Source: Desulfobacteraceae bacterium
Lineage (GTDB): Bacteria > Desulfobacterota > Desulfobacteria > Desulfobacterales > JAJDOA01
DNA length: 42,226 nt
NCBI GenBank assembly: GCA_022340405.1
Contig: JAJDOA010000273.1
Location: 1 to 42,226, forward strand
Reading direction: 5' to 3'
Made by a program: the position numbers and the translations under genes. This document shows, in pieces, positions 21,544-42,226 of this stretch (position 1 is its first letter; every line of letters begins with the position of its first letter). The notes under the pieces are model-generated. The model was not told the DNA's origin, searched no databases, and saw only the letters and a program-made list of their open reading frames with translations.

Positions 21544-23709
21544 TCACCTCTCCGACCGGGTGACTCTCCGGATGAAATGGTGAATCGCCTGGTGCACCGT
21601 ATGGGCTTCCTCACCCAGCAAAATACCGTGTCGCTGAAAATTGACGAACAGTAGAGATTTGTTTTCCGATTCCAGCCGGTCGAACACCTTTCGGGCGCCG
21701 CCGGGTTGCACCACGGGATCCCTGTCGGATTGGATTACTAGGGCGGGGACATGGATGGACGGCAGGACTTCGGCGACGGCGTCCATGAGCCTTTCCAACT
21801 CATGGATGCCGCTGACGGGATTGCGCGTGTAGTTGATGTGCGGGTTTTCCGGTTCATTGGCCACAAACTCCAGCATGGCTCCCCTCCACCGCACCCTTTC
21901 CATGAGTCGATTCCAGGTGTCCACCGCCGGTGCAAAGCGGGCGGAAAAATCCTGCAGACGCAGCGGCGGCGCCACTGCGAACACACCGGAGAGCCCCTTG
22001 ACTCTAGCAGCGAGCTCCAGAGCCAGCCCTGCTCCCGTCGAAAACCCGCCCACCACCACTTCCTTGCAGGTCCCGGAGATCACGGCATAGGCACGATTGA
22101 CCGAATCGATCCAGTCATTGTGTGTGCGCAAGGCCAAATCCTCCGGCGAGGTACCGTGGCCCCGCAACCGCGGGACGTACACCCAAAGACCCCGGGCTCC
22201 CAGGTAGTCCGCCAGGTCTTTTAGTTCGTAAGGGGCGGCCATGTATCCGTGGACGAGAACCACGCCGATCCGGTCCCGGCCTCCGCGCAGAAAATAGGGA
22301 CGGCCGACGCGCTTTGCCCTGCTTTGCCCGTCTCGATGGTAGGCGGCATAGTCGTCATCGAAGCATTTCAGGTCCTGCCGGAGCAGTTTCCAGGCGATCC
22401 TGCGTCGAAGCCAGAAGTCCGGGATCCAGGCCAGGTGCCGTATGGCCCGCTCCAGTGCCTGCAGGGGCTCCACTTCGTTTGCGATCACGGCCACCGGGTT
22501 TTCCATCCGCGCCCGGTCGAAATGGAAAAGGCCGTCGAACTTGGCGTTGTTCCGCACCCAGTCCGACCCCTCCCGCGCAGCGATCCGGGTTTGCAGGGCC
22601 AGGCGCTCGAAATCCCTGTACTTGCCGTATCGGTCGTCGACGATGAGATGCAGCTGGTCCGTGCGCAGGCTGTCGTGGCAGAATACCCCCAAACGCTCCA
22701 AATCCATGACTGCGGCGGCGTACACCTTTCTACGAAACGCCATTTCATCGATGCGGTTCAGCGGCATTTTTTTGAAGACGACGGCGAACAGGTGATCGTG
22801 GTTCACGGTGGTCATCCGATAGATATCCGTCATGTACCGCCGCATCAATAGCAGCGCTTCCTTCCGCATCCGCGGAAGAGAGGAGAGCGCGTCGTTGAAG
22901 TCGATTCGGCTTTTCCGGGTGATATCGGCGCGGATGGTCCGGTGACGCAGATGGGACACCACCGGAATCGGTTTGCCGAAGCGGATGTCCATATCCACGC
23001 CGCTGAGCAGCATCGTTCCTTCGGTCATGATCTCGTCGATGGCGCGGTCGGGGATATCTTCGACCAATATCGATGCCAATTGGCTGAGGACGTTCTCCCG
23101 GGCTCGAATGGGGTAGTAGGTGATGTTCACGGGAACGATATGAGTGGACCGCCCGGAGAGAATTTCGAGAGATTCGATCTGAAAACGGTGCTGCAGGCGC
23201 TCGGCCTCCTCCGGCATCTCCTTCCATAAGTGAAGCAGCCGCTGGCGATAGAATTCGGTTCGTATGGCCAGCGTCGCAGCCCCTGTGTGCGGGGGGTGTT
23301 TGCCGCCGGCGTAGGAGACCATGAAGCGACCGTTTTCCAGGATCTTCTTGTTTTTCACCATGCGGCCTTCGGGAAAAATGATCCAGTGGGCCTCTCCGGT
23401 GAGCAGGGTTTTTACGATGAGCCGATCCCTGTCCGGATTCTGCGTACTGAGGGCACCGACCTGCTCCAGGAAAGCGCCGAAAGCGCCGACGAAAAGACCG
23501 GCATCGGCCAATGACCAGACCTGGTGTTGCGTCAGATGGTGAATGTGATAGGGGAGCAGCAGGGTTTCGATGCGCGTGAAATGGTTGACGACGAAGACGA
23601 TGGAACCCTCCGGTATGTTCTCCGATCCGTGGATTTGGATGTTGGCCCTGGACAGGCCCGATAGGGTTTTGATGGCAAGACCTGTGGTGCGATAGGCAAA
23701 CGAGTTCAT
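21544..23709 (-). CDS. Fusion protein: N-terminal PlsC/LPLAT-type glycerolipid acyltransferase, ~250-aa middle region, C-terminal alpha/beta-hydrolase (esterase/lysophospholipase-like)
   Basis: The N-terminus has VVNHFTRIE (an HX4D/E-type motif) and IIFPEGRM (FPEG block). The C-terminus has VVLVHGYMAAP, the nucleophile elbow GGFSTGAG (GxSxG), and late DRDPVV and RHGIL residues consistent with a Ser-Asp-His triad. Confidence 0.85.
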   Translation of the reverse strand: MNSFAYRTTGLAIKTLSGLSRANIQIHGSENIPEGSIVFVVNHFTRIETLLLPYHIHHLTQHQVWSLADAGLFVGAFGAFLEQVGALSTQNPDRDRLIVKTLLTGEAHWIIFPEGRMVKNKKILENGRFMVSYAGGKHPPHTGAATLAIRTEFYRQRLLHLWKEMPEEAERLQHRFQIESLEILSGRSTHIVPVNITYYPIRARENVLSQLASILVEDIPDRAIDEIMTEGTMLLSGVDMDIRFGKPIPVVSHLRHRTIRADITRKSRIDFNDALSSLPRMRKEALLLMRRYMTDIYRMTTVNHDHLFAVVFKKMPLNRIDEMAFRRKVYAAAVMDLERLGVFCHDSLRTDQLHLIVDDRYGKYRDFERLALQTRIAAREGSDWVRNNAKFDGLFHFDRARMENPVAVIANEVEPLQALERAIRHLAWIPDFWLRRRIAWKLLRQDLKCFDDDYAAYHRDGQSRAKRVGRPYFLRGGRDRIGVVLVHGYMAAPYELKDLADYLGARGLWVYVPRLRGHGTSPEDLALRTHNDWIDSVNRAYAVISGTCKEVVVGGFSTGAGLALELAARVKGLSGVFAVAPPLRLQDFSARFAPAVDTWNRLMERVRWRGAMLEFVANEPENPHINYTRNPVSGIHELERLMDAVAEVLPSIHVPALVIQSDRDPVVQPGGARKVFDRLESENKSLLFVNFQRHGILLGEEAHTVHQAIHHFIRRVTRSER

Positions 23710-29727: not shown

Positions 29728-30002
29728 TCGACCGCGGCTTCTTTTCCGCTCCGAATGAACGGCCCCGACCCCCCGGTATCCGCGATGTGTGATTCGCCCT
29801 AGCAAGCGACGGAGAGTGCACCTTGTCCGCCGCCTGCGGATTGAAAGCGGTCAACGGGTGTGGTAGACACGGCATACACCGCAACCAATGGACTTCTCCG
29901 TCCCAGCGGCGGACAATAAAACCGCATACGCCACCGGCGGATGCAACAGGGAACCACGGCGAAGGCAGCCGGGCACCGGTTCCGATCCTGGAGTTCTTCC
30001 AT

Positions 30003-31124
30003 ATGAAAAGTATCTATGCGGAGCGGACGGACCGCACAACAGAAAAACTGCCCCAACACGACATTGACACACTGATGGTCGTCGTAGGGGAAAACCGACG
30101 TTATCTCAGCGGGTTCACGGGGGAGGACACCCAGTTCGACGAAACCGCAGGGGCCCTGTTCATCACACGCGATCGCCGCATCCTGGCCACGGATACCCGT
30201 TATGCCCTTCAGGCCGAGACGGAGGCGCCGGAGTACGAGATCCGCTGCTACCGAGACAGCCTGAGCCGTGAAACGCCGGAAATCCTTCGGGATCTGGGAA
30301 CGCAACGCCTGGGATACGAAAGCGTCCGCCTGTCGTGTTGGATGCTCGATCGGCTCCAAAAAGCGTTGGCCGAGGCAGCTTGGGAGACGGAGCTGCGCGG
30401 GGTCGAGGACCTGGTGGAGTCCCAGCGGGCCGTTAAAACGGAGGAGGAAATCCGCAGCACACGCCAAGCCCTCGATATCGCCGAACAGGCTTTCTGCGAG
30501 ACGGCCGCGGGCCTGCGGGAGGGCATGACGGAACGCCAACTGGCCTGGGAGATGGAGCGCCGGATGCGGGAAAAAGGCGCGGATTCCCTTTCCTTTCCCG
30601 TCATCGTCGCCGCCGGGGCCAATAGCGCGCTGCCCCATGCCGTACCGGGAGATCGCCCCGTGCGCAGAGGCGAACCGATTCTTTTCGACTGGGGCGCCCG
30701 GTGGGGCGGTTACTGTTCGGACACGTCGAGAACCCTCGTTTTGGGAGAACCCGACGACACCTTCGTATCCGTTTTCCAAACCGTCCGGAAAGCCCAGCGC
30801 GAGGCGATCGCCGCCATTCGTCCCGGAGCGAGCACCAGGGCCGTGGACGCCGTGGCCCGGGACTGCATCGGCGATGCCGGCTTTGCCGGGAAATTCGGCC
30901 ACGGCCTCGGTCACGGAACCGGCCTGGCCATCCACGAAGCCCCCCGACTGAGCCCTCTTCGGGAAACGACATTGGCGGCCGGAATGGTGGTTACCGTGGA
31001 GCCCGGCGTTTATCTACCCGATTGGGGCGGTATCCGGCTCGAAAACCAGGTGGTCGTGAGACCCGACGGCGCCGAGATTCTCACCCGACTGCCGGTGGAC
31101 TGGAACCCCGGGGCTTTCCGATGA
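30003..31124 (+). CDS. pepP: Xaa-Pro aminopeptidase / M24B family metallopeptidase
   Basis: Creatinase-like N-terminal domain, then PSFPVIVAAGANSALPHA, DWGARWGGYCSDTSRT, HGLGHGTGLAIHE, VEPGVY and IRLEN metal-ligand blocks. ATG 30003 was chosen inside ORF 29823..31124. Confidence 0.85.
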   Translation: MKSIYAERTDRTTEKLPQHDIDTLMVVVGENRRYLSGFTGEDTQFDETAGALFITRDRRILATDTRYALQAETEAPEYEIRCYRDSLSRETPEILRDLGTQRLGYESVRLSCWMLDRLQKALAEAAWETELRGVEDLVESQRAVKTEEEIRSTRQALDIAEQAFCETAAGLREGMTERQLAWEMERRMREKGADSLSFPVIVAAGANSALPHAVPGDRPVRRGEPILFDWGARWGGYCSDTSRTLVLGEPDDTFVSVFQTVRKAQREAIAAIRPGASTRAVDAVARDCIGDAGFAGKFGHGLGHGTGLAIHEAPRLSPLRETTLAAGMVVTVEPGVYLPDWGGIRLENQVVVRPDGAEILTRLPVDWNPGAFR

Positions 31125-32062
31125 CGGAAGGCAAGCCCGATACACCCGCAGTGCCGGCGCCGGGGGAGACCGGGATCCATCCGCTGCTGGATCGCTACCT
31201 CGACTACCTGCTGGTGGAAAAAGGTCTTTCCCGCCGGACCCTGGAAGCCTACAGCCGAGACCTGTCCCGCTTTGCCACTTTCCTGCTCGATCAAGCGGTC
31301 GACCGCCCCACAGAGCAGGACACCGCGATTCTTCTCGCTTATTTGATCCATCTTCGAAAATCCGGACTCTCCGGACGGTCCCGGGCCCGGCATCTGGTGT
31401 CCATCCGCGGTTTCTACCGGTTTCTGTGCAGGGAGGGCCTTCTGAATTCCGACCCCTCGTTGCGCGTGGATCTGCCCAAGACCACACAGAAGCTGCCGGA
31501 GGTGTTGAGTGTCCGTGAAGTGGAACGGCTGCTGCGCGCACCTGCCGAGGACACCCCAACGGGGCTTCGGGATGGCGCCATGATCGAGATGATGTATGCT
31601 GCGGGATTGCGTGTCAGCGAGCTGGTGGGCATGAAGCGCCACGATGTCAATCTCGAGGCCGGATTCGTGCGCGTGCTGGGAAAAGGCGCCAAAGAGCGCA
31701 TCGTACCCATCGGACGCTACGCCCGCGACAGGATTGCATCCTACATCGAAAACGCACGGCCCGTTTTGCTGAAAAGCCGAACGAGCCCCTACCTCTTTGT
31801 CGGGCGCGGAGCAAAGGCCATGAGCCGTCAGGGATTTTGGAAGCTGCTGCGCAGATACGGCCTGAAAGCAGGACTCAGAAGGCCCGTTTCTCCGCACGCT
31901 CTCCGGCATTCCTTTGCCAGCCACCTGCTGGAGGGGGGGGCGGATCTGAGGGCGGTTCAGGCCATGTTGGGACACGCGGACATTTCCACGACACAGATCT
32001 ACACGCATGTGGCGCGGGAGCGCCTGCAACTTGTGCACAAAAAGTACCATCCCAGGGGGTGA
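31121..32062 (+). CDS. xerD: Site-specific tyrosine recombinase XerD
   Basis: LDRYLDYLLVEKGLSRRTLEAYSRDL at the N-terminus, ARDRIMIEMMYAAGLRVSEL-like box I, and HALRHSFASHLLEGGADLRAVQAMLGHADISTTQIYTHV with the catalytic Tyr. The ATG overlaps the pepP stop (ATGA). Confidence 0.85.
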   Translation: MTEGKPDTPAVPAPGETGIHPLLDRYLDYLLVEKGLSRRTLEAYSRDLSRFATFLLDQAVDRPTEQDTAILLAYLIHLRKSGLSGRSRARHLVSIRGFYRFLCREGLLNSDPSLRVDLPKTTQKLPEVLSVREVERLLRAPAEDTPTGLRDGAMIEMMYAAGLRVSELVGMKRHDVNLEAGFVRVLGKGAKERIVPIGRYARDRIASYIENARPVLLKSRTSPYLFVGRGAKAMSRQGFWKLLRRYGLKAGLRRPVSPHALRHSFASHLLEGGADLRAVQAMLGHADISTTQIYTHVARERLQLVHKKYHPRG

Positions 32063-32200: not shown

Positions 32201-33850
32201 ATGGAATCGAAAACCAACCCCGCCGGCTGGTGGATTCCGCCGGCCGACGTCGCGCCGGACCGGGCCAACCGGGTCGATTCCATGCGTCACGTGCTCTACC
32301 GTGTCGGCAAACCGCTGTTCGTAGCGGTGTCGGAAGGGGAAACGGTCGTTGCCTGCGACGGCACGGCCCTGATGGGTCGCGGAGATCGCCCTTCCGAAAG
32401 CGCCCTGCCCCTGAAAGCCTGGATTCCCCCGCTGGATCCGGCGGACCTGGGAGACCCTGTCTTTCGGCGCCGCTATGGCCTGCGATTTCCTTATGTCGCA
32501 GGCGCCATGGCCAACGGCATCACGTCCGTGGAGATGGTTCGGTCCATGGGAGAAGCCGGGATGATCGGTTTTTTCGGGGCCGCCGGACTTTCACTGGATC
32601 GGATCGAATCAGCCATCGACGACCTGAAGGCAAAGCTTGGGGATCGGCCTTACGGATGCAACCTGATCCACAGTCCCTACGATCCGGCGCTGGAGGAGGC
32701 GACGGTGGACCTGTACCTGCGGCGCGGCATCCGGAGGGTGAGCGCTTCGGCGTACCTGGACCTCACACCTTCGCTGGTGCGGTACCGGCTTTCAGGAATC
32801 CATCGCGATCCGAAGGGACGAGTGGTATGCCCCAATCAGGTGCTGGCGAAGGTGTCCCGTGTCGAGGTCGCCCGGAAATTCCTGTCCCCGGCGCCGGCCA
32901 AATGGATTGCCCATCTCTTGGATCGGGGCCTCCTTGCGGCCGAGCAGGCGGCCCTGGCCGAGGGGGTTCCCATGGCCGACGACATGACGGCGGAGGCGGA
33001 TTCGGGTGGGCACACCGATAACCGTCCCGCTCTGGCACTGCTGCCTGTCATGACCCGTTTGCGGGACGAAATGACGGACCGGTATCAATACGGCGAACCC
33101 GTCTGCGTAGGCCTTGCCGGAGGGATTGCGACGCCGGAGTCCACGGCGGCCGCCTTTGCCATGGGGGCCGCTTATGTACTCACCGGTTCCATTAACCAAT
33201 CATGCGTGGAAGCCGGAACCTCAGATGCGGTGCGACGGATGCTCGCCGAGGCGGAACAGGCCGATGTGGTCATGGCACCGGCGGCCGACATGTTCGAAAT
33301 GGGCGTAAAGGTCCAGGTGCTCAAACGCGGCACCCTGTTCGCCGTGCGAGCCGCCAAGCTCTACGATCTGTACCGCCGGTACGATAGCTGGGAGGCCGTC
33401 CCTGCATCCGAACGCGTTCGTCTGGAACGGGACTGCTTCCGTAAATCCTATGCGGAAGAGTGGGCGGATACCCGCCGGTTCTTTCTTCACCGGGATCCGA
33501 AACAGATCGACCGGGCCGAGCGGGATCCCCGCCACCAAATGGCCCTCGTGTTTCGTAGCTATCTGGGACAGTCTTCGAATTGGGCGGTGTCCGGCGATCC
33601 TCAGCGGAAAGTCGACTATCAGATCTGGTGCGGTCCGGCCATGGGCACGTTCAACGAATGGGTTCGGGGCTCCCTTTTGGAGCCTCCGGAAAACAGAACC
33701 GTGACGACGGTTGCCATGAACCTGCTGTGGGGCGCTGCCGTAATTACCCGCATCAACTGGCTGCGCCTCCAGCGAGTTGACCTTCCGCCGGAGGTTTGCC
33801 ACGTGCCGCCCCTTTCCACGGAGCAGATCCGCCACTATCTGGAGGAATGA
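32201..33850 (+). CDS. pfaD: PfaD-family enoyl reductase (FMN-dependent, 2-nitropropane-dioxygenase-like; PUFA/polyketide synthase ER subunit)
   Basis: FRRRYGLRFPYVAGAMANGITSVEMV, GMIGFFGAAGL, GCNLIHSP, TAEADSGGHTDNRPA, GLAGGIATPES and YQIWCGPAMGTFNEW match the PfaD family along the full 549 aa. Confidence 0.9.
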   Translation: MESKTNPAGWWIPPADVAPDRANRVDSMRHVLYRVGKPLFVAVSEGETVVACDGTALMGRGDRPSESALPLKAWIPPLDPADLGDPVFRRRYGLRFPYVAGAMANGITSVEMVRSMGEAGMIGFFGAAGLSLDRIESAIDDLKAKLGDRPYGCNLIHSPYDPALEEATVDLYLRRGIRRVSASAYLDLTPSLVRYRLSGIHRDPKGRVVCPNQVLAKVSRVEVARKFLSPAPAKWIAHLLDRGLLAAEQAALAEGVPMADDMTAEADSGGHTDNRPALALLPVMTRLRDEMTDRYQYGEPVCVGLAGGIATPESTAAAFAMGAAYVLTGSINQSCVEAGTSDAVRRMLAEAEQADVVMAPAADMFEMGVKVQVLKRGTLFAVRAAKLYDLYRRYDSWEAVPASERVRLERDCFRKSYAEEWADTRRFFLHRDPKQIDRAERDPRHQMALVFRSYLGQSSNWAVSGDPQRKVDYQIWCGPAMGTFNEWVRGSLLEPPENRTVTTVAMNLLWGAAVITRINWLRLQRVDLPPEVCHVPPLSTEQIRHYLEE

Positions 33851-33853
33851 TTC

Positions 33854-34723
33854 ATGCCCTTGAAGATCATTGTCACCGTCAAACAGGTGCCGGACACCCA
33901 CAACGTTTCCGGCGATGCCATGAAACCGGACGGCACCGTGAACCGCGCCGCCCTGCCGGCCATCTTCAACCCCGAAGACCTCAATGCCCTGGAGGAGGCG
34001 CTGCGCATCAAGGACACCCTCGGCGGCACCGTGACGGCCGTCACCATGGGGCCTCCCGGTGCTTCGGAGGTGTTGAGGGAATGTCTCTATCGCGGCGCGG
34101 ACGATGTCGTGCTTCTCTCCGATCGGCGTTTTGCGGGAGCCGACACCCTTGCCACCAGCTATACGCTTGCCTGTGCCATTCGAAAATTGGGGGATTTCGA
34201 CCTGATTCTTTGCGGGCGTCAGGCCATCGACGGCGATACCGCACAGGTGGGGCCCCAAATCGCCGAGAAACTCGGAATCAACCAGTTCACCTCGGTTTCG
34301 GAAGTCATCGATGTCTCAACCGACCACATCACCGTGCGCCGAACGATAGAGTCCGGTTTCGAGATTCTACGCTCCGGGTTGCCGGTGCTGCTCACCATCA
34401 CTTCGGACGCGAACGAGCCCCGGCCGCCCAGTGCCAAACGGGCCATGGCCTACAAGCGGATCGGGCGGCAGGCCTGCCAGGGCGATTTCGACGAGGCGTA
34501 CATCCAGCCGGGCGTCTGCGGCCCCTTGGATTTCATCCGTGAATGGAACGCCGATTCCATCGGGGCGGATCCGCAGCGATGTGGTTTGAGCGGTTCGCCC
34601 ACCAAGGTGAAAAAGGTCCAAAACGTCGTGCTCACGGCCTCCGACTCCCGGAAGGTTCCCAACACCGATGCGGATATCGCCAAACTGATACATGATCTCA
34701 TTGAAGAAAACATTCTCGGTTAG
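33854..34723 (+). CDS. etfB: Electron transfer flavoprotein beta subunit, clostridial/FixA-like type
   Basis: IIVTVKQVPDT, FNPEDLNALEEAL, MGPP and GRQAIDGDTAQVGPQIAE, where mitochondrial-type EtfB has DDDxNQTGQ, plus GLSGSPTKVKKV. The RBS GGAGGAA precedes the start, which lies 3 nt after the pfaD stop. Confidence 0.9.
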   Translation: MPLKIIVTVKQVPDTHNVSGDAMKPDGTVNRAALPAIFNPEDLNALEEALRIKDTLGGTVTAVTMGPPGASEVLRECLYRGADDVVLLSDRRFAGADTLATSYTLACAIRKLGDFDLILCGRQAIDGDTAQVGPQIAEKLGINQFTSVSEVIDVSTDHITVRRTIESGFEILRSGLPVLLTITSDANEPRPPSAKRAMAYKRIGRQACQGDFDEAYIQPGVCGPLDFIREWNADSIGADPQRCGLSGSPTKVKKVQNVVLTASDSRKVPNTDADIAKLIHDLIEENILG

Positions 34724-34732
34724 GAGAGCGTT

Positions 34733-35752
34733 ATGACGGAAGCCAAGAACGTCATGGTGTTCATCGAGGCGGACCGGGGCCGCGTCGCCGACGTCAGCCT
34801 CGAGCTGGTGTGCGAAGCCGGACGACTGGCCGAACGCCTTGGGGGAACCGTCGAGGCCGCCGCTATGGGATACGGCATGACCGAGGCCCTGGCGGATCTC
34901 GGACGGTATGGATGCCGCCGCGTCTACTACACGGAAGATCGGAGGCTGGAGCGCTTCGCCTCCGTACCCTATGCCAAGATAACGGCAGATATCATCCGCC
35001 GACGGACCCCGAAGGTGGTTCTTTTCGGTGCGAGCACCACCGGCCGGGACGTCGCACCCCGGGTGGCTTCGATCCTGCGCTGCGGCCTTACCGCGGACTG
35101 CACCGAATTGGATATCGGTGATTACCGCTTCAAGGACAGGCAATGGGAGGACGTCCTATTGCAGATCCGCCCCGCCTTCGGAGGGAATATCGTGGCCACC
35201 ATCGTGAGCCCCGAGAGCGTTCCCAGCATGGCCACGGTTCGGGAAGGGGTGATGCGGCTCATCGAATCCGATCCGGAAGCCCGGGCGGAGGTCTTGCGGG
35301 AAGCCGTCAGCCTGGGAGGGGATGACTTTCCCACCGAAATCATCGAGGTGATCGAGCAGGAGCGGTGCGTGGATCTGAAATCCGCACGAATCATCGTCGC
35401 CGCCGGAGTCGGTGCCAGCGATCCGGAATCGCTGAAGCTGGTGCGCCAACTGGCTCGACTGCTAGGCGGTGTGGTCGGAGCCTCTCGTCCGGTTGTGGAT
35501 GCCTGCGTGCTCCCCCGAGACCACCAGGTCGGACAGACCGGCACCACGGTGCGGCCCAATCTGTATGTCGCCTGCGGCATATCCGGACAGATCCAGCACC
35601 GGGCGGGAATGGCGGAGTCCAAGAGGATCATCGCCATCAACCGAGATCCGGACGCACCCATCTTCGACGTGGCCCACTACGGCATCGTCGGTGACGTGCG
35701 GGAAGTCATTCCGCGAATGATCAAAGCCTACAAGGTGCGGGGAACGCTGTGA
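34733..35752 (+). CDS. etfA: Electron transfer flavoprotein alpha subunit
   Basis: The C-terminal FAD-binding domain is IIVAAGVGA...GASRPVVDA...QVGQTGTTVRPNLYVACGISGQIQHRAGM...IIAINRDPDAPIF. The RBS is AGGAGAG. No N-terminal ferredoxin domain is present. Confidence 0.9.
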   Translation: MTEAKNVMVFIEADRGRVADVSLELVCEAGRLAERLGGTVEAAAMGYGMTEALADLGRYGCRRVYYTEDRRLERFASVPYAKITADIIRRRTPKVVLFGASTTGRDVAPRVASILRCGLTADCTELDIGDYRFKDRQWEDVLLQIRPAFGGNIVATIVSPESVPSMATVREGVMRLIESDPEARAEVLREAVSLGGDDFPTEIIEVIEQERCVDLKSARIIVAAGVGASDPESLKLVRQLARLLGGVVGASRPVVDACVLPRDHQVGQTGTTVRPNLYVACGISGQIQHRAGMAESKRIIAINRDPDAPIFDVAHYGIVGDVREVIPRMIKAYKVRGTL

Positions 35753-35785: not shown

Positions 35786-35811
35786 CCCCCAGCATCGGCG
35801 TGGGGGTTTTT
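35786..35811 (+). terminator. Terminator/attenuator-like hairpin between etfA and the acyl-CoA dehydrogenase gene
   Basis: CCCCCA-gcatcggcg-TGGGGG followed by TTTTT. It lies 34 nt after the etfA stop and 26 nt before the GTG start of the next gene. Confidence 0.4.
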
Positions 35812-35836: not shown

Positions 35837-37561
35837 GTGTCGAATTTTTTTCGTGACAATCCGGATATTCTCTTTCACATGGAGCACCTGGACTTTTCCA
35901 GGATCGTGGAACTCAAAGAGGACGGATTCGCCGACAGGGACCGATTTCCGGAAGCGCCGACGGACCTCGAAGATGCCGTGGACAACTACCGGCGCGTTCT
36001 GGACATTGTCGGCGATATCGCCGGCGGGTACGTGGCCCCCCGCGCCGAGCAGGTGGACCGCACCGGAGCCCGGTTTGCGGACGGTGTCGTCACCTATGCT
36101 CCCGGCACCCGGGAGGCCCTGGAACGTCTCCGACAGGCGGAGGTCATGGGGTTCACCCTGCCGCGGCGCTACGGCGGTCTCAACATGCCCAAAACGGTCT
36201 ACTCCATCGCCATCGAAATGATCTCCCGCGCCGACGCCTCGTTGATGAACATTTTCGGTCTGCAGGAAATCGCGGACACCATCAACAAGTTCGGATCGGA
36301 GGAACAAAAGCAGCGCTATCTGCCTCGCTTCTGCGAGGGTTCGGTGATGGGCTCCATGGCGCTGACCGAACCGGATGCCGGCAGCGACCTGCAGTCCGTG
36401 CGGTTGCGTTCGCACCAAGACGAGGACGGTATCTGGCACCTCAACGGCGTCAAGCGCTTCATCACCAACGGATGCGCGGACATCTCTCTGGTCATGGCCC
36501 GGTCGGAGGAGGGCACTACCGGTGGACGGGGCATTTCCCTTTTCATCTACGAGCGCGACGAACACATGCGGATTCGACGCATCGAGGAAAAGCTGGGAAT
36601 TCACGGCTCTCCGACCTGTGAGCTGCAGTTCGACGACGCCCCGGCCGAACTGCTGGGGCGACGGAAAATGGGGCTGGTCAAGTATACGATGTCGTTGATG
36701 AACGGCGCCCGTCTCGGCGTGGCGGCGCAAGCCGTGGGAATCGCCGAGGCGGCGTGCCGGGAAGCCACCCGATACGCCCGGGATCGAACCCAGTTCAAAA
36801 AGCCCATCCATCAGTTCGCCGCGGTTTACGAAATGCTCACCTGCATGCAGGTGGATATCGAGGCCGCCCGCACACTGCTGTATGAGACCTCCCGCATCGT
36901 CGACATCAAGGAGGGACTGGAGGAAAAGGCGGAGCGGCACCCCGAATCCGCCCGGGACATCGCCGGCGCTGTAAAGCGCTATACGAAATTGGCCGGGGTC
37001 CTCACCCCGATGGTCAAGGCCTACGCCAGCGAAGTCGCCAATCGCATCTGCTACGATGCGATCCAGGTCCATGCAGGGGTGGGCTTTACCTGCGACTTTC
37101 CCGTGGAACGCCTGTACCGGGATGTACGGATCACCAACATCTACGAGGGTACGACTCAGCTGCAGGTGGTGGCCGCCATCGGTACGGTACTCGGAGGCGG
37201 CATTTCCGAACTGCTCTCGGCATACGAAGAGGAATACGACTTCTCCCCGGTGTCCGAACGGTTCGCCCAAGCGGAGCAACTGCGAAGGGACCTGGAGGCG
37301 GCCGTTTCGGCGGTCAAGCAGGCCGGCGATCCCGCCTTTCAGGAATACCATTCACGGCGGATCGTGGAAACGGCCATCGATGCCGTCACCGGATACCGGT
37401 TGTGCATCGATGCCCTGTATTCGGAAAGAAAACGGAAAGTGGCGGCCCTTTTTCTCGCCCGGGCGGTCCACCGTTGCAGAACACGGCTGGAGATCATCCT
37501 CTCGGGCGACCGGAACTGTATGGATTTCCATCCGGAGATCATCGCCGGGTTCCCCGAATAG
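35837..37561 (+). CDS. Long-form acyl-CoA dehydrogenase (~574 aa; core ACAD fold plus ~190-aa C-terminal extension)
   Basis: MALTEPDAGSDL, WHLNGVKRFITNG, RRIEEKLGIHGSPTCEL, ARDRTQFKKPI and VHAGVGFTCDFPVERLYRDVRITNIYEGTTQLQ (catalytic Glu). GTG 35837 is preceded by GGGGGAAATAACC and lies downstream of the hairpin. The track start at 35759 is a TTG with no RBS. Confidence 0.85.
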   Translation: MSNFFRDNPDILFHMEHLDFSRIVELKEDGFADRDRFPEAPTDLEDAVDNYRRVLDIVGDIAGGYVAPRAEQVDRTGARFADGVVTYAPGTREALERLRQAEVMGFTLPRRYGGLNMPKTVYSIAIEMISRADASLMNIFGLQEIADTINKFGSEEQKQRYLPRFCEGSVMGSMALTEPDAGSDLQSVRLRSHQDEDGIWHLNGVKRFITNGCADISLVMARSEEGTTGGRGISLFIYERDEHMRIRRIEEKLGIHGSPTCELQFDDAPAELLGRRKMGLVKYTMSLMNGARLGVAAQAVGIAEAACREATRYARDRTQFKKPIHQFAAVYEMLTCMQVDIEAARTLLYETSRIVDIKEGLEEKAERHPESARDIAGAVKRYTKLAGVLTPMVKAYASEVANRICYDAIQVHAGVGFTCDFPVERLYRDVRITNIYEGTTQLQVVAAIGTVLGGGISELLSAYEEEYDFSPVSERFAQAEQLRRDLEAAVSAVKQAGDPAFQEYHSRRIVETAIDAVTGYRLCIDALYSERKRKVAALFLARAVHRCRTRLEIILSGDRNCMDFHPEIIAGFPE

Positions 37562-37674: not shown

Positions 37675-38301
37675 CTATCGCGCGGCGTCCTGTATGCGCC
37701 CCCCTTTGGGAGGCTGTTGAAGAAAGGAAAAGCAGGCGGGGGGCAGCCCCAGGAGGTCGACGAACTCCCAAAGCATGGCACCGAGGGGAAGCAGTCTCGC
37801 CCCATATCCTGCCAATTGCGAACGCGACCAGTATGGCCGATCCGGCAAGAGTTCTTCGCTCCACCGCTCTTCCAGCCGTTCCGATCCCCCTTTCCGTCCC
37901 AGTCGCGTGCGGCGTTCGATGGTTTGGATACGATAATGCATCCTTGAGGCATTTCCGGATTGAATCCACACCCGGATATCCACGGCTGCTTCTGCCGTTG
38001 GATTTTTCGAATCGCTTCGATCGAGGCCGGCCGGGTCGAATCGAAAACCGGATGCTTCCATCAACGGCCGCAGATCCTGCAAGACCTGACGGGTGTCGGG
38101 AATGGTGAAGCCGGCGGAGGAAACGAGATAGCCGGCCAAAAACAGCTGGAAGGCGTCGTCCGGGCTGTACTGACGGGCATAGCCGGACTGAAGCCCCCCC
38201 AGTGGATCGGGGGCAAGGAATTCCCTGGACCAGCGCTTCCATTTGGCCAGATTGACGCCAAAGGATTCGGACAACTGCCGGTTGGTGTAGTAGCGGATCA
38301 T
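37675..38301 (-). CDS. Hypothetical protein with MerR-like N-terminal helix-turn-helix (tentative) and uncharacterised C-terminal domain
   Basis: From ATG 38301 the protein reads MIRYYTNRQLSESFGVNLAKWKRWSREFLAPDP.....GYARQYSPDDAFQLFLA. This follows the MerR pattern of HTH, then G-Y-R-x-Y-s-x-x-D-l-x-x-l. The ORF extends to 38439, but that part lies in AT-rich, motif-laden DNA. Confidence 0.45.
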   Translation of the reverse strand: MIRYYTNRQLSESFGVNLAKWKRWSREFLAPDPLGGLQSGYARQYSPDDAFQLFLAGYLVSSAGFTIPDTRQVLQDLRPLMEASGFRFDPAGLDRSDSKNPTAEAAVDIRVWIQSGNASRMHYRIQTIERRTRLGRKGGSERLEERWSEELLPDRPYWSRSQLAGYGARLLPLGAMLWEFVDLLGLPPACFSFLQQPPKGGRIQDAAR

Positions 38302-38375
38302 TGCGGGGTACCTGCGGTGAAGAATACGGTGAAATGGAACAGCATTGCCAAATGCCGCATCATCATAATGATATC

Positions 38376-38515
38376 TTGTTATATCATATAAACAACCATT
38401 ACAAGAACAATCCTGAATGCGAAACCGATCGGAACGCACAATGAGCGGCCTTCTTTCCCAGTATCCTGGATTTCCGCTTCTAATATGATAAGTTGTTATA
38501 CCAGTCTATCATATA
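38376..38515. promoter_or_regulatory. Candidate operator cluster: 20-bp near-palindrome TTGTTATATCATATAAACAA plus repeated TTGTTATA and TATCATAT half-sites
   Basis: TATCATAT occurs at 38382-38389 and 38507-38514, and as its complement ATATGATA at 38483-38490. TTGTTATA occurs at 38376-38383 and 38493-38500. ATCATAATGAT lies at 38363-38373. All of this sits in a visibly AT-rich island inside GC-rich DNA. Confidence 0.4.
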
Positions 38516-38649: not shown

Positions 38650-41600
38650 ATGAAAAATTCCACCCAAAACGGATCCCCCGTCGCCGTCATCGGTATCGGT
38701 TGCTTTTTTCCGGGATCTCCCGGGCTAAAGCCGTTCTGGCAGTTGTTGTTCCGGGAAAGAGATGCCATCACGGATGTCCCGCCATCCCACTGGTCCCGGG
38801 AGGATTATTTCGACGAAGACCCGAAACGGCCGGATCATGTCTACTGCTCCAGGGGCGGTTTTCTATCTCCCGTGGCCTTCGATCCCTCCGAATACGGAAT
38901 TCCCCCCAGCAACCTCCAGGCCACGGACACTTCCCAATTGCTCGGTCTCGCCGCTGCCAAGGCGGCTCTGGAAGACGCCGGTTACGGGGATGATCGGGAT
39001 TTCGACAGGGACAGGACCAGCGTGGTGCTCGGCGTCACCGGCACACAGGAGCTGGTGATCCCTTTGGGGGCCCGTCTCGGGCATCCCATCTGGCGCAGAG
39101 CGCTGCACGAAGCGGGCGTGGCGCCCGAAACGGCGGAAACCGTGATCCAAGGCATTTCCGACGCTTACGTACCCTGGCAGGAAAACGCTTTTCCGGGCCT
39201 GCTGGGAAACGTCGTTGCGGGTCGGATCTGCAACCGACTCGACTTCGGCGGCACCAACTGCGTGGTCGACGCGGCCTGCGCCAGCTCCATGGGCGCGATT
39301 CATCTGGCGATGCTGGAACTGGAGACGGCACGCTCCAACATGGTGGTCACCGGTGGCGTTGACGCCATCAACGACATCTTCATGCACATGTGCTTTGCCA
39401 AGACGCAGATTCTATCCCCCACCGGGAATGCACGCCCATTTTCCAGGGATGCCGACGGGACGGTGCTGGGCGAAGGCATCGGCATATTGATCTTCAAGCG
39501 GCTGGCCGATGCCGAGCGCGACGGCGACCGGATATACGCCGTGATCCGGGGCATCGGGTCCGCCAGCGACGGTCGTTCCCAGAGCATCTATGCCCCCCGC
39601 GTTCAAGGGCAGACCAAAGCGCTGCGTCGTGCCTATGAAAAAGCCGGAGTGGATCCGGCCTCGGTGGGGCTGATCGAGGCCCACGGCACCGGAACCCGTG
39701 TCGGCGACGCCGTGGAATTCAGAGCTCTCCGTGACCATTTCGGAAAGGTTGCAGCCGGCGACAACCGGTGTGCCGTCGGGGCGGTCAAGTCCATGATCGG
39801 CCACACCAAGGCGGCTGCAGGCGCCGCCGGCCTGATCAAGGCCGTACTGGCCCTGCATCACAAGGTGCTGCCCCCCACCCTGAAAATATCCGAGCCCGAT
39901 CCAGGACTGGAACTGGAAGACAGTCCTTTCTACTTGAACACCCGTCTGCGCCCCTGGATGAACGACGGGCTCACGCCCCGCCGTGCCGGGGTGAGTGCTT
40001 TCGGTTTCGGCGGCAGCAACTACCATGTGGTGCTCGAGGAGTACCGACCGGAAAAATCGGAGATCTCCTGGGACGGTTCGGTGGAAATCCTCGCTTTTTC
40101 CGGAGCCAACCCGGAGCAGGTCCGGCAGCGGGTGCGTTCGTTTCAAAAAGACCTCCGGCAAATCGGCGACCTGGACGCCGCCGCCCACCAAGCCGGCGGG
40201 ACGCGCAAATCCTTCTCCCATCGGGATCCCTGCCGGCTGACACTGGTCGCTCCCGTCCGCGGCGACGTAGGGGATCTGCGCGACGACTGGCTCCGGAGAC
40301 TCGACGCCGCCCGGAAGCGGTTATCGGATGCACCGCCCCGGTCCGAGGATTCGGATGGAGAGGTTTTCCTCGCTCAAGGCGATGTGCCGGGCGGGCTGGC
40401 GTTTCTTTTCCCCGGCCAGGGCAGCCAGTACTTGTACATGGGCCGGGATGTCCTTTGCATGTTCCCCCAGGCAATGGAATGCCTCGCATGCGCCGACGAG
40501 ATCGCCGGAGGCGATGATCGGCTGTCGGACCGCATCTATCCGATACCGGCCTTCAAGCCGGAACACGCCTCCATGCAGGAAAACCGGCTGCGGGAGACGC
40601 AGACGGCACAGCCGGCCATCGGAGCCGTCAGCGCTGCCATGCTGGCGGTGCTGCATTATTTCGGCGTCGAACCCGACGCCGTCGCGGGCCACAGCTTCGG
40701 TGAACTCACGGCCCTTTACGCCGCGGGCCGCATATCGGAACGAGATTTTCACCGACTGGCGGCAACACGCGGCAGGATCATGCACGAAGCCGCAGGCGGT
40801 CGGCGCCAGGACGCCGGTGCCATGCTGGCAGTGAACGCTCCCCTGGAGCGCCTGGCATCCCTGGTCGAGAATGAGACGGAAACACTTGTCCTGGCCAATC
40901 GCAACAGCCCGAAGCAAGGTGTGTTTTCGGGATCTTCGGCGGCGGTATCCCGTCTGGAAGAGCGATGCCGGGAACAGGGCCTGCCGGCCGTCCGGCTGCC
41001 TGTGGCAGCGGCGTTTCACAGCCCCCTGCTCGGGTCCGCCGGTGCGGCCTTTGGCAAGGAACTGGGCAACGTCTCTTTCCGGGAGGGAAGCATCCCGGTT
41101 TTTGCCAACACCACCGCCGCGGTGTATCCAGATGATCCTTCGGAGGCAAAGCGCATCCTGGCCGAGCAGATCCGCCACCCGTTGGATTTCGTCGGAATGG
41201 TGGAAGCGCTTTATGCCGCAGGCTGCCGAACCTTTGTGGAGGTCGGCCCCGGAAGCGTCCTCAGCGGTCTGGTACGCCGCATTCTCGAAGGAAGACCGTC
41301 GGTTGCGGCCGCTCTGGACCCCGCGGCGGGAAAGCGTTCCGGGACAACCGACCTGGCTGCCGTGTTGTGCCGGCTGGCATCGATGGGGTACCCGATTCGG
41401 CTGGAACACTGGGAAAAACTTGCCGCAACGCCCAGGAAGCGAAGAATGAACATACCGCTGTCCGGCGCAAATTACCGCCCGGAGGGCAGTGCCGGGGAGA
41501 GCCGCCCATCCTCTTACGCTGCCGCTGCCGCCACTCCTCTCCGGAACACGGATCTGCAAAACCCGGTCATCGAAAAAAACCCGACGGTACCGGCTCCACC

Positions 41601-42226
41601 CAGGCCGGTTGCCGAAACCCGTACGATATCGAACGAAACCATGAAAGAGTCCCAACTACACCATTCGATCCCTTCACAGCCGACGGTTTCCGAATCCGTG
41701 TCGGATGCGATGTCCACGATCCAGGAAGGTCTTCGCTCTCTACAGACCCTCCAGCACCAGACGGCCGAAGCCCACCGGATGTTTTTGGAGAACCAGACCG
41801 AGATCAGCCGTAACATCCAGGCCCTGATGCAGCAGGCCGGAACCCTGGCCGGATGGTCCGCCTCACCGGAGGAGCGCTCTACGGCGCCTGCCCCCGAAAG
41901 ACCGGAAAGGCGGCGGCCTGCGCTCCAACCGGAAGGAATCCGACAGCCTGTCCCCGTCGCCGATGTACCGGTTGCAGCAGTCCCGGAGACACTGCCTCCA
42001 CCCGCTTCGCAACCGGGACAGACGCGAACCGCTGCACAAGAAGTGCCGCCGCCGCAACCGGAGACGCCGGCAAGCTCTTCCGTGCCGACGGCCCTGAAGG
42101 CGGTGGTCTCCGAGCTCACCGGGTATCCGGAGGAAATGCTCTCTGCCGACATGGATATCGAGGCCGACCTGGGCATCGACTCCATCAAGCGTGTGGAGAT
42201 CCTGTCCACCCTCGAGGAGCGCGTGC
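38650..42226 (+). CDS. pfaA: PfaA-like polyketide/PUFA-synthase subunit, 5' partial (KS - malonyl-CoA:ACP acyltransferase - Pro/Ala-rich linker - start of first ACP); continues beyond the window
   Basis: I translated this by hand; it is not in the ORF track because it has no stop in the window.
- KS: VAVIGIGCFFPG; VVDAACASS (Cys210, nt 39277-39279); EAHGTGT; KSMIGHTKAAAG.
- AT: AFLFPGQGSQY; GHSFGE (Ser682, nt 40693-40695); AAFHSPL.
- ACP: DLGIDSIKRVEILS (Ser1178, nt 42181-42183). Confidence 0.9.
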   Translation, partial: MKNSTQNGSPVAVIGIGCFFPGSPGLKPFWQLLFRERDAITDVPPSHWSREDYFDEDPKRPDHVYCSRGGFLSPVAFDPSEYGIPPSNLQATDTSQLLGLAAAKAALEDAGYGDDRDFDRDRTSVVLGVTGTQELVIPLGARLGHPIWRRALHEAGVAPETAETVIQGISDAYVPWQENAFPGLLGNVVAGRICNRLDFGGTNCVVDAACASSMGAIHLAMLELETARSNMVVTGGVDAINDIFMHMCFAKTQILSPTGNARPFSRDADGTVLGEGIGILIFKRLADAERDGDRIYAVIRGIGSASDGRSQSIYAPRVQGQTKALRRAYEKAGVDPASVGLIEAHGTGTRVGDAVEFRALRDHFGKVAAGDNRCAVGAVKSMIGHTKAAAGAAGLIKAVLALHHKVLPPTLKISEPDPGLELEDSPFYLNTRLRPWMNDGLTPRRAGVSAFGFGGSNYHVVLEEYRPEKSEISWDGSVEILAFSGANPEQVRQRVRSFQKDLRQIGDLDAAAHQAGGTRKSFSHRDPCRLTLVAPVRGDVGDLRDDWLRRLDAARKRLSDAPPRSEDSDGEVFLAQGDVPGGLAFLFPGQGSQYLYMGRDVLCMFPQAMECLACADEIAGGDDRLSDRIYPIPAFKPEHASMQENRLRETQTAQPAIGAVSAAMLAVLHYFGVEPDAVAGHSFGELTALYAAGRISERDFHRLAATRGRIMHEAAGGRRQDAGAMLAVNAPLERLASLVENETETLVLANRNSPKQGVFSGSSAAVSRLEERCREQGLPAVRLPVAAAFHSPLLGSAGAAFGKELGNVSFREGSIPVFANTTAAVYPDDPSEAKRILAEQIRHPLDFVGMVEALYAAGCRTFVEVGPGSVLSGLVRRILEGRPSVAAALDPAAGKRSGTTDLAAVLCRLASMGYPIRLEHWEKLAATPRKRRMNIPLSGANYRPEGSAGESRPSSYAAAAATPLRNTDLQNPVIEKNPTVPAPPRPVAETRTISNETMKESQLHHSIPSQPTVSESVSDAMSTIQEGLRSLQTLQHQTAEAHRMFLENQTEISRNIQALMQQAGTLAGWSASPEERSTAPAPERPERRRPALQPEGIRQPVPVADVPVAAVPETLPPPASQPGQTRTAAQEVPPPQPETPASSSVPTALKAVVSELTGYPEEMLSADMDIEADLGIDSIKRVEILSTLEERV

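Follow-up and report, generated by a model that had tools for sequence, protein, structure and literature searches.

The closest described relatives of the system considered here are complexes in which an electron-transferring flavoprotein (Etf) is paired with an acyl-CoA dehydrogenase (ACAD). Bcd/EtfAB of Clostridioides difficile (5OL2) and Acidaminococcus fermentans (Etf 4KPU, Bcd 4L1F) is encoded by a trio of etfB, etfA, and an ACAD gene, and the same kinds of subunit make up CarCDE of Acetobacterium woodii (6FAH) and the enoyl-CoA reductase complex AcrABC of Clostridium propionicum (NF042970, NF042971, and NF042972). Described separately are the pfa-like secondary lipid synthases of types I, J, and K, found in Deltaproteobacteria and Planctomycetes, which carry pfaD at the 5' end followed by pfaA (KS-AT-ACPn-KR...) and whose product is uncharacterised (Shulse and Allen 2011, PMC3098273). 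Both kinds of gene meet in a 42,226-nt stretch from a Desulfobacteraceae bacterium (assembly GCA_022340405.1, contig JAJDOA010000273.1, an entire contig of a metagenome-assembled genome; the whole stretch is referred to as the window), in which a pfaD gene of the type I/J/K layout is followed by etfB, etfA, and an ACAD gene. The published descriptions of the type I/J/K clusters mention no etf or ACAD gene (PMC3098273), whereas in the window and 10 further loci pfaD is separated from a regulator gene/pfaA by the trio. Comparison of these loci indicates that etfB-etfA-acd is probably a self-contained redox cassette, whose Etf serves its own ACAD and not PfaD.

EtfB has its best solved relatives in 6fah_B (CarD, E = 2.9e-56), 7qh2_B (LctB), 5ol2_B, 7koe_A, and 4kpu_B, with scores of 156–194 bits (E = 1e-45 to 3e-56) against CarD, LctB, C. 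difficile EtfB, Thermotoga maritima EtfAB, and A. fermentans EtfB, compared with just 50–72 bits (E = 1e-12 to 1e-19) against the non-bifurcating ETFs of Paracoccus, human, Methylophilus, and Geobacter. EtfA divides the known Etfs in the same way, scoring 198–261 bits against bifurcating and 90–130 bits against non-bifurcating members; among solved structures it comes closest to 7koe_B, 6fah_A (CarE, the second-best match), and 5ol2_A. Taken together, the two window subunits score 156–253 bits against the C. difficile and A. fermentans chains. Mitochondrial-type Etfs, which contain AMP, carry the motif DDDxNQTGQ. The two EtfB segments originally noted, GRQAIDGDTAQVGP (aa 121–134, nt 34214–34255) and GLSGSPTKV (aa 244–252, nt 34583–34609), are both present; the former corresponds to the group-2 segment that surrounds the second (bifurcating) FAD where other Etfs have their AMP-site sequence, and is identical in CarD and near-identical in LctB, while the segment GRQAIDGDTAQVG has the same letters in CarD and is invariant in 13 of 13 aligned trio EtfBs, whether linked to pfaD or not. 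The motifs described for group-2 Etfs are RPxFGG in the large subunit, and G..SPTxV and RxGV in the small subunit (PMC10734219). EtfA matches the first of these with RPAFGG (nt 35168–35185), and at the RxGV position EtfB reads R-A-A-L, with the Arg retained and the Gly-Val replaced. The scores against solved Etfs, together with RPxFGG and G..SPTxV, support the assignment of the pair to group 2, the bifurcating type, and as a statement of sequence class this part of the original prediction stands.

The window subunits also differ from their described counterparts. EtfB contains a variable insertion of ∼25 aa relative to CarD and the other solved EtfBs, including that of Bcd/EtfAB (aa ∼199–236, nt 34448–34561), placed just before the G..SPTxV loop; across the EtfB family of the trio this insertion often has one or two cysteines, which are not conserved. 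EtfA has no N-terminal ferredoxin domain, in contrast to CarE with its N-terminal ferredoxin-like extension, such that the alignment of the two starts at CarE residue 69. Scores against the AcrABC models were 218, 314, and 261 bits for equivalog cutoffs of 475, 600, and 640 bits, far too low for orthologues. Compared with Bcd/EtfAB, the putative window complex has the gene order etfB-etfA-acd and a sulfate-reducer host.

The ACAD encoded after etfA combines a Bcd/SCAD-like catalytic core with an N-terminal extension (∼50–90 aa relative to the ∼380-aa Bcd) and a C-terminal PF12186 domain, and is far longer than CarC. Among the PDB matches, its core most resembles enzymes of the Bcd type such as 5ol2_C, 4l1f, and 1buc, with an overall architecture like that of the 577–603-aa long forms 8r1e, 6ijc, 2z1q, and 3owa. 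The catalytic Glu437 (nt 37145–37147), at the MCAD/SCAD position and in the same place as in Bcd, lies within IYEGT, which is invariant in 129 relatives. Many relatives of equal length and domain set were found at 63–74% identity, and context look-ups and a metagenome scan revealed a constant trio of etfB (289 aa), etfA (∼337 aa), and ACAD (570–582 aa) genes. The ACAD gene follows etfBA in all 20 loci with a readable downstream flank (the window and fetched loci L052, L055, L086–L089, L091, L092, L094–L097, L100, L105, and L108–L112). At least eight loci (L088, L089, L091, L094–L097, and L100) have the trio without pfaD, although the 2.6 kb or more readable upstream of each would have revealed an adjacent pfaD, and close relatives of the trio (69–70% ACAD identity) sit elsewhere, beside unrelated genes. 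No pfaD-etfBA lacking the ACAD gene was found among the loci examined. The trio is a conserved unit, widespread in Desulfobacterales, and because it occurs without pfaD, but pfaD-etfBA was never seen without the ACAD gene, the redox partner of the Etf is most likely the downstream ACAD and not PfaD. The trio of a JGI metagenome contig (L093, Ga0316576_10044430) is 100% identical in amino acid sequence to that of the window, and a second, 2.3-kb JGI contig (P0001) encodes a PfaD 99% identical to the window protein; consequently, the same population was sampled independently.

PfaD itself belongs, judged by its domains, to the FMN-type enoyl reductases that act in trans with a pfa-like synthase. 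It matches TIGR02814 with 646.3 bits (cutoff 449.25) over profile positions 3–442 of 444 and contains PF03060 (aa 98–377, an NMO/FabK-type FMN TIM-barrel) and PF21607 (aa 394–473, an inserted helical domain). The family identities first given for PfaD, EtfB, and EtfA hold (TIGR02814; PF01012; PF00766). Reductases of the PfaD/FabK type accept hydride straight from NAD(P)H at FMN. An exact-sequence look-up of the window PfaD gave no match. The full-length relatives of PfaD number in the thousands, the nearest being 60–64% identical apart from the single 99% copy, and full-length orthologues of 56–65% identity adjoin pfaA in more than 60 loci, with the orthologous pfaA genes encoding proteins of 2120–2258 aa with KS-AT-ACP-KR-DH domains. 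The first relatives examined had the order M24 peptidase gene, xerD, pfaD, a small minus-strand gene, and pfaA, without an etf or ACAD gene. This proved to be the usual state of the locus. A scan with one genome per species yielded 80 pfaD loci, mainly from Desulfobacterales with some from Planctomycetota and others, of which 69 were informative downstream and 68 were informative for xerD upstream. The Etf-ACAD trio follows pfaD in only two of the 69 (L052 and L055, from sister metagenome-assembled genomes), whereas the other 67 are without any Etf and run pfaD-(regulator)-pfaA; pfaA was found downstream in most of the 69. Look-ups of ACAD relatives, described below, showed the linkage to be better conserved than this sampling of species implied.

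The order M24 peptidase gene-xerD-pfaD is kept across many Desulfobacterales (the window, L001, L002, L009, L012, L087, L111, L112, and others), and 32 of the 68 informative loci have xerD upstream of pfaD at a distance of no more than 2.5 kb. These genes have no obvious functional relation and are a control for neutral synteny in the region. The four full-length Etf-linked PfaDs compared have just one distinctive column in common, a conservative L-to-V change; of the 155 alignment columns with at least 95% conservation among unlinked PfaDs, they retain 149. Two of the scanned loci (L006 and L022) have no pfaA within 10 kb downstream of pfaD, and in L017 (11632–17000) pfaD and pfaA are separated by ∼5.4 kb with short open reading frames only, which may be a decayed insert or a mobile-element remnant in the same slot.

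As a working model, the cassette would pair a group-2 Etf, presumably of the FAD/FAD kind, with a flavin-containing ACAD on which, as in Bcd-EtfAB and CarCDE, the Etf would dock. In such a complex, oxidation of NADH would be coupled to the reduction of enoyl-CoA, possibly along with that of ferredoxin; alternatively, the complex would run in reverse during fatty-acid oxidation. The host synthase would be a two-gene pfa-like system consisting of pfaD and pfaA (KS-AT-ACPn-KR-DH), with PfaD predicted to act as an ordinary NAD(P)H/FMN enoyl reductase that has no need of the Etf. In some lineages the cassette would have come to occupy the slot that separates pfaD from the divergent regulator/pfaA and to be inherited there with pfaD, and on this contig the pfaD-etfB spacer would have shrunk to 3 nt, such that the cassette is presumably read from the pfaD transcript.

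Several observations weigh against so autonomous a cassette, and the most substantial concern its linkage to pfaD. The absence of a conserved pfaD-etf adjacency was one of the findings named beforehand as refuting the original prediction, but pfaD-etfB-etfA-ACAD(-regulator-pfaA) does recur, in 10 of the fetched loci besides the window, of which at least eight are distinct. In the linked loci (the window, L052, L055, L086, L087, L108, L109/L110, L111, and L112) etfB always comes directly after pfaD; relative to the window, their PfaDs are 58–64% and their trios 63–72% identical. They fall into four supported clades of an ACAD tree of 129 sequences, with all nine tested members of these clades linked and all eight informative loci outside unlinked. 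L111 and L112 were picked as predictions from this tree and both show the exact arrangement of the window (two of two blind tests). The distances between PfaDs and between trios are correlated across eight linked loci (r = 0.92, Mantel p ∼4e-4), which indicates that the block has been inherited together, and L109/L110 have pfaD next to the trio with neither pfaA nor the regulator within 9 kb. In recurrence, co-divergence, and L109/L110 there are hints of a functional connection left unexplained by an autonomous cassette. The proposed chemistry meets further difficulties. At 574 aa and with extra domains, the ACAD is unlike the ∼380-aa Bcd/CarC of known bifurcating complexes; bifurcation is possibly a property of this Etf, presumed from its group-2 sequence, which is no proof of it; and among NCBIfam models those of the C. 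propionicum acryloyl-CoA reductase rank top for EtfA and the ACAD and second for EtfB, although far below cutoffs. That enzyme is not known to reduce ferredoxin or to bifurcate.

One way to account for the linkage is that the pfa-like synthase has the trio as its dedicated accessory and that pfaD-etfB-etfA-acd is a selected operon. The substrate of the ACAD-Etf would then be the acyl chain that PfaA/PfaD build, bound as a CoA or ACP thioester, and the pair could provide a reduced starter, introduce or eliminate a 2,3 double bond, or carry out an energy-conserving enoyl reduction. The repeated gene order, the success of the blind predictions, the agreement of linkage with ACAD clades, the co-divergence, and the retention of pfaD with the trio in L109/L110 all favor such an accessory role, as does the fact that every partner handles acyl thioesters. 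On the other hand, descent alone can suffice, as the unrelated xerD/M24 genes kept beside pfaD demonstrate; the trio is missing from the large majority of pfaD loci, and its close relatives stand beside unrelated genes elsewhere. In addition, the slot takes inserts of an unrelated kind (in L086, L087, and L109, motA and motB together with an unknown gene), the monophyly of linked trios received 0% bootstrap, and spacers of 39–221 nt between pfaD and etfB would permit separate promoters. A dedicated accessory role consequently appears rather unlikely, and we hold a functional link of the trio to the pfa lipid pathway to be possible at that same tentative level. Neutral synteny is a live alternative as an account of the adjacency because the unrelated xerD is also kept beside pfaD. 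Still less probable is the stronger proposal of a four-gene redox unit of the two-gene synthase, selected and co-inherited in anaerobic Desulfobacterales, in which the bifurcating-type Etf/ACAD makes or tailors the PfaA lipid; such a unit may, for example, perform ferredoxin-coupled, energy-conserving enoyl reduction, or Etf-linked desaturation, of the nascent acyl thioester. No reports tying pfa genes to etf genes were found in the literature searched.

The original prediction had gone in another direction: PfaD itself could exchange electrons with the Etf, the two constituting an Etf-dependent enoyl-thioester reductase of a new and possibly bifurcating kind, in which the partner has the NMO/FabK fold. 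The 3-nt junction, with the ribosome-binding site of etfB inside pfaD, and the position of etfB immediately 3' of pfaD in all linked loci speak for such a pairing. Nor do bifurcating Etfs serve ACADs exclusively: the accompanying statement that they pair with the ACAD fold agrees with the ACAD gene adjoining here but was too narrow, as LctD (7qh2) and EtfCX/FixCX (7koe) are also partners. However, the ACAD gene is the next gene and accompanies etfBA throughout the 20 loci, the trio can stand alone, an Etf neighbor is missing at 67 of 69 orthologous PfaDs, and linked PfaDs have no specific substitutions beyond the one conservative column. Moreover, the spacer of 39–221 nt in the other linked loci, compared with 3 nt in this contig alone, makes the tight junction a local feature, and enzymes of this type take NAD(P)H directly at FMN. 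An Etf-dependent PfaD is thus very improbable. A more serious contender, although a doubtful one, retains the Etf and ACAD as partners but makes them non-bifurcating, with electrons from beta-oxidation passing to a membrane-bound Etf:(methyl)menaquinone oxidoreductase whose gene would lie elsewhere. The ETF of Syntrophus aciditrophicus, likewise deltaproteobacterial and partnered with ACADs in a redox chemistry of fatty acyl-CoAs that is reversible in vivo, is experimentally non-bifurcating and acts with the membrane iron-sulfur (FeS)/haem oxidoreductase EMO (PMC8805022). More generally, delivery of electrons to the quinone pool via FeS oxidoreductases is documented or proposed for the ETFs of Deltaproteobacteria, Desulfobacteraceae can have as many as seven Etf pairs that differ in role, and the long FadE/VLCAD-like architecture of the ACAD is typical of beta-oxidation. 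Against this, the window Etf is close only to bifurcating Etfs and has the group-2 motifs except for the Gly-Val of RxGV. In Desulfococcus multivorans, for which a quinone route is proposed, oxidoreductase genes co-localise with the quinone-linked Etfs, whereas no Etf:quinone oxidoreductase gene of the FeS/EMO or EtfCX/FixCX type was present among the scanned window open reading frames or beside the trio in L086–L089 and L108–L112, although one elsewhere in the genome is possible.

Trees of PfaD alone and of PfaD plus PfaA (63 taxa) failed to place the Etf-linked loci, grouping the window with L087 at 29% bootstrap and leaving a clade of all linked loci effectively without support, and in the concatenated trio tree the monophyly of linked trios had 0% support, with the alternative at 11–16%. 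A single insertion followed by many losses and a few separate insertions are therefore indistinguishable because the backbones of the trio and PfaD/PfaA trees are unresolved. One ACAD clade has, after the trio, genes for a 250–305-aa protein without a Pfam match and for MotA/ExbB- and MotB/OmpA-like proteins (L086, 10899–13454; L087, 10776–13646; L109, 9163–12126; L110, 5518–8883), with the regulator and pfaA coming after the inserted block; the window has no such insert. The pfaD-trio block of L109 (1–17728) and L110 lies amid glycosyltransferase, TPR, and methyltransferase genes, and is the sole case seen of pfaD keeping the trio rather than pfaA.

The find is a modest one, a common three-gene redox cassette lying between two synthase genes in some relatives among sulfate reducers. 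If the trio is merely a neighbor, then it is an ordinary Etf/ACAD module with a shrunken spacer to pfaD, and nothing changes. What is new is, on the one hand, a large Desulfobacterales family in which a group-2 Etf accompanies a long FadE/VLCAD-like ACAD instead of a short Bcd, a pairing through which longer acyl-CoAs could come within reach of electron bifurcation or confurcation in sulfate reducers, and, on the other, the repeated presence of this trio inside the locus of an uncharacterised two-gene pfa-like lipid synthase. There it could offer a handle on the product of the synthase and on the tie of its redox steps to the ferredoxin pool. The arrangement is also usable as a marker, the ACAD clade having foretold the genomic context in both blind tests. 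Should the improbable four-gene unit be real, it would be the first link of flavin-based electron bifurcation to an assembly line of the polyketide synthase/fatty acid synthase type.

The features of the locus are collected in Table 1. Re-examination of the sequence confirmed the originally reported coordinates of pfaD, etfB, and etfA, the gaps of 3 nt (pfaD-etfB) and 9 nt (etfB-etfA), and GGAGGAA at the end of pfaD. The 3-nt gap is too small for a promoter or terminator. The ACAD gene begins 84 nt after etfA on the same strand, and the hairpin with U5 that had been noted as terminator-like does exist in this gap. As a terminator it was rejected as weak, since the terminator scan did not list it and its fold (z = 0.62) is no better than that of shuffled sequences; it is at most an attenuator, sitting between etfA and the ACAD gene and not at the end of the unit. 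The open frame of the pfaA-like gene contains PF00109, PF02801, PF16197, PF00698, and PF00550. In the AT-rich region between the regulator and pfaA, the two copies of the 19-nt direct repeat, ATGATATCTTGTTATATCA and ATGATAAGTTGTTATACCA, lie 117 nt apart and are candidate operators. The MerR-like regulator gave tblastn matches in 39 of the first 107 loci fetched and is found directly 3' of pfaD in most relatives; a minus-strand gene of 189–196 aa occupies the regulator position in relatives including L111 and L112. In most relatives the regulator is without a Pfam match, and it appears uncharacterised.

Table 1. Positions of the features of the pfaD-etfB-etfA-ACAD locus and its flanks in the window
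Feature	Positions	Strand	Details
Xaa-Pro/M24 peptidase gene	29823–31124	+	PF00557 + PF01321; upstream synteny marker, outside the unit
xerD-type tyrosine recombinase gene	31148–32062 (start approximate)	+	TIGR02225, 368 bits
pfaD	32201–33850	+	549 aa; TGA stop 33848–33850
GGAGGAA, Shine-Dalgarno-like, for etfB	33841–33847	+	Read from sequence; within 3' end of pfaD
etfB, small/beta subunit	33854–34723	+	289 aa; ATG 33854, TAG 34721–34723; PF01012
etfA, large/alpha subunit	34733–35752	+	339 aa; ATG 34733; PF01012 + PF00766
G+C-rich hairpin + U5, weak	35786–35811	+	Hairpin ∼35786–35806, UUUUU 35807–35811
Acyl-CoA dehydrogenase (ACAD) gene	35837–37561	+	GTG start; 574 aa; PF02771, PF02770, PF00441, PF12186
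MerR-like helix-turn-helix regulator gene	37675–38301	-	208 aa; PF13411, E = 2.5e-5 (weak); divergent from pfaA
19-nt direct repeat, two copies, ATGATAnnTTGTTATAnCA	38368–38386 and 38485–38503		Regulator-pfaA intergenic region; putative operators
pfaA-like iterative synthase gene (KS-AT-ACP...)	38650–42226	+	Open frame running off the window end

The remaining genes of the window are of the housekeeping kind, among them mutS, mnmA, mtaB, and genes for an amidase, a sigma factor, and an amino-acid ABC transporter. At 21544–23709 on the minus strand, 8.5 kb from the pfa locus, there is a gene for a 721-aa fusion of a PlsC-type acyltransferase with an alpha/beta-hydrolase (S33), which could be a lipid-remodelling enzyme.

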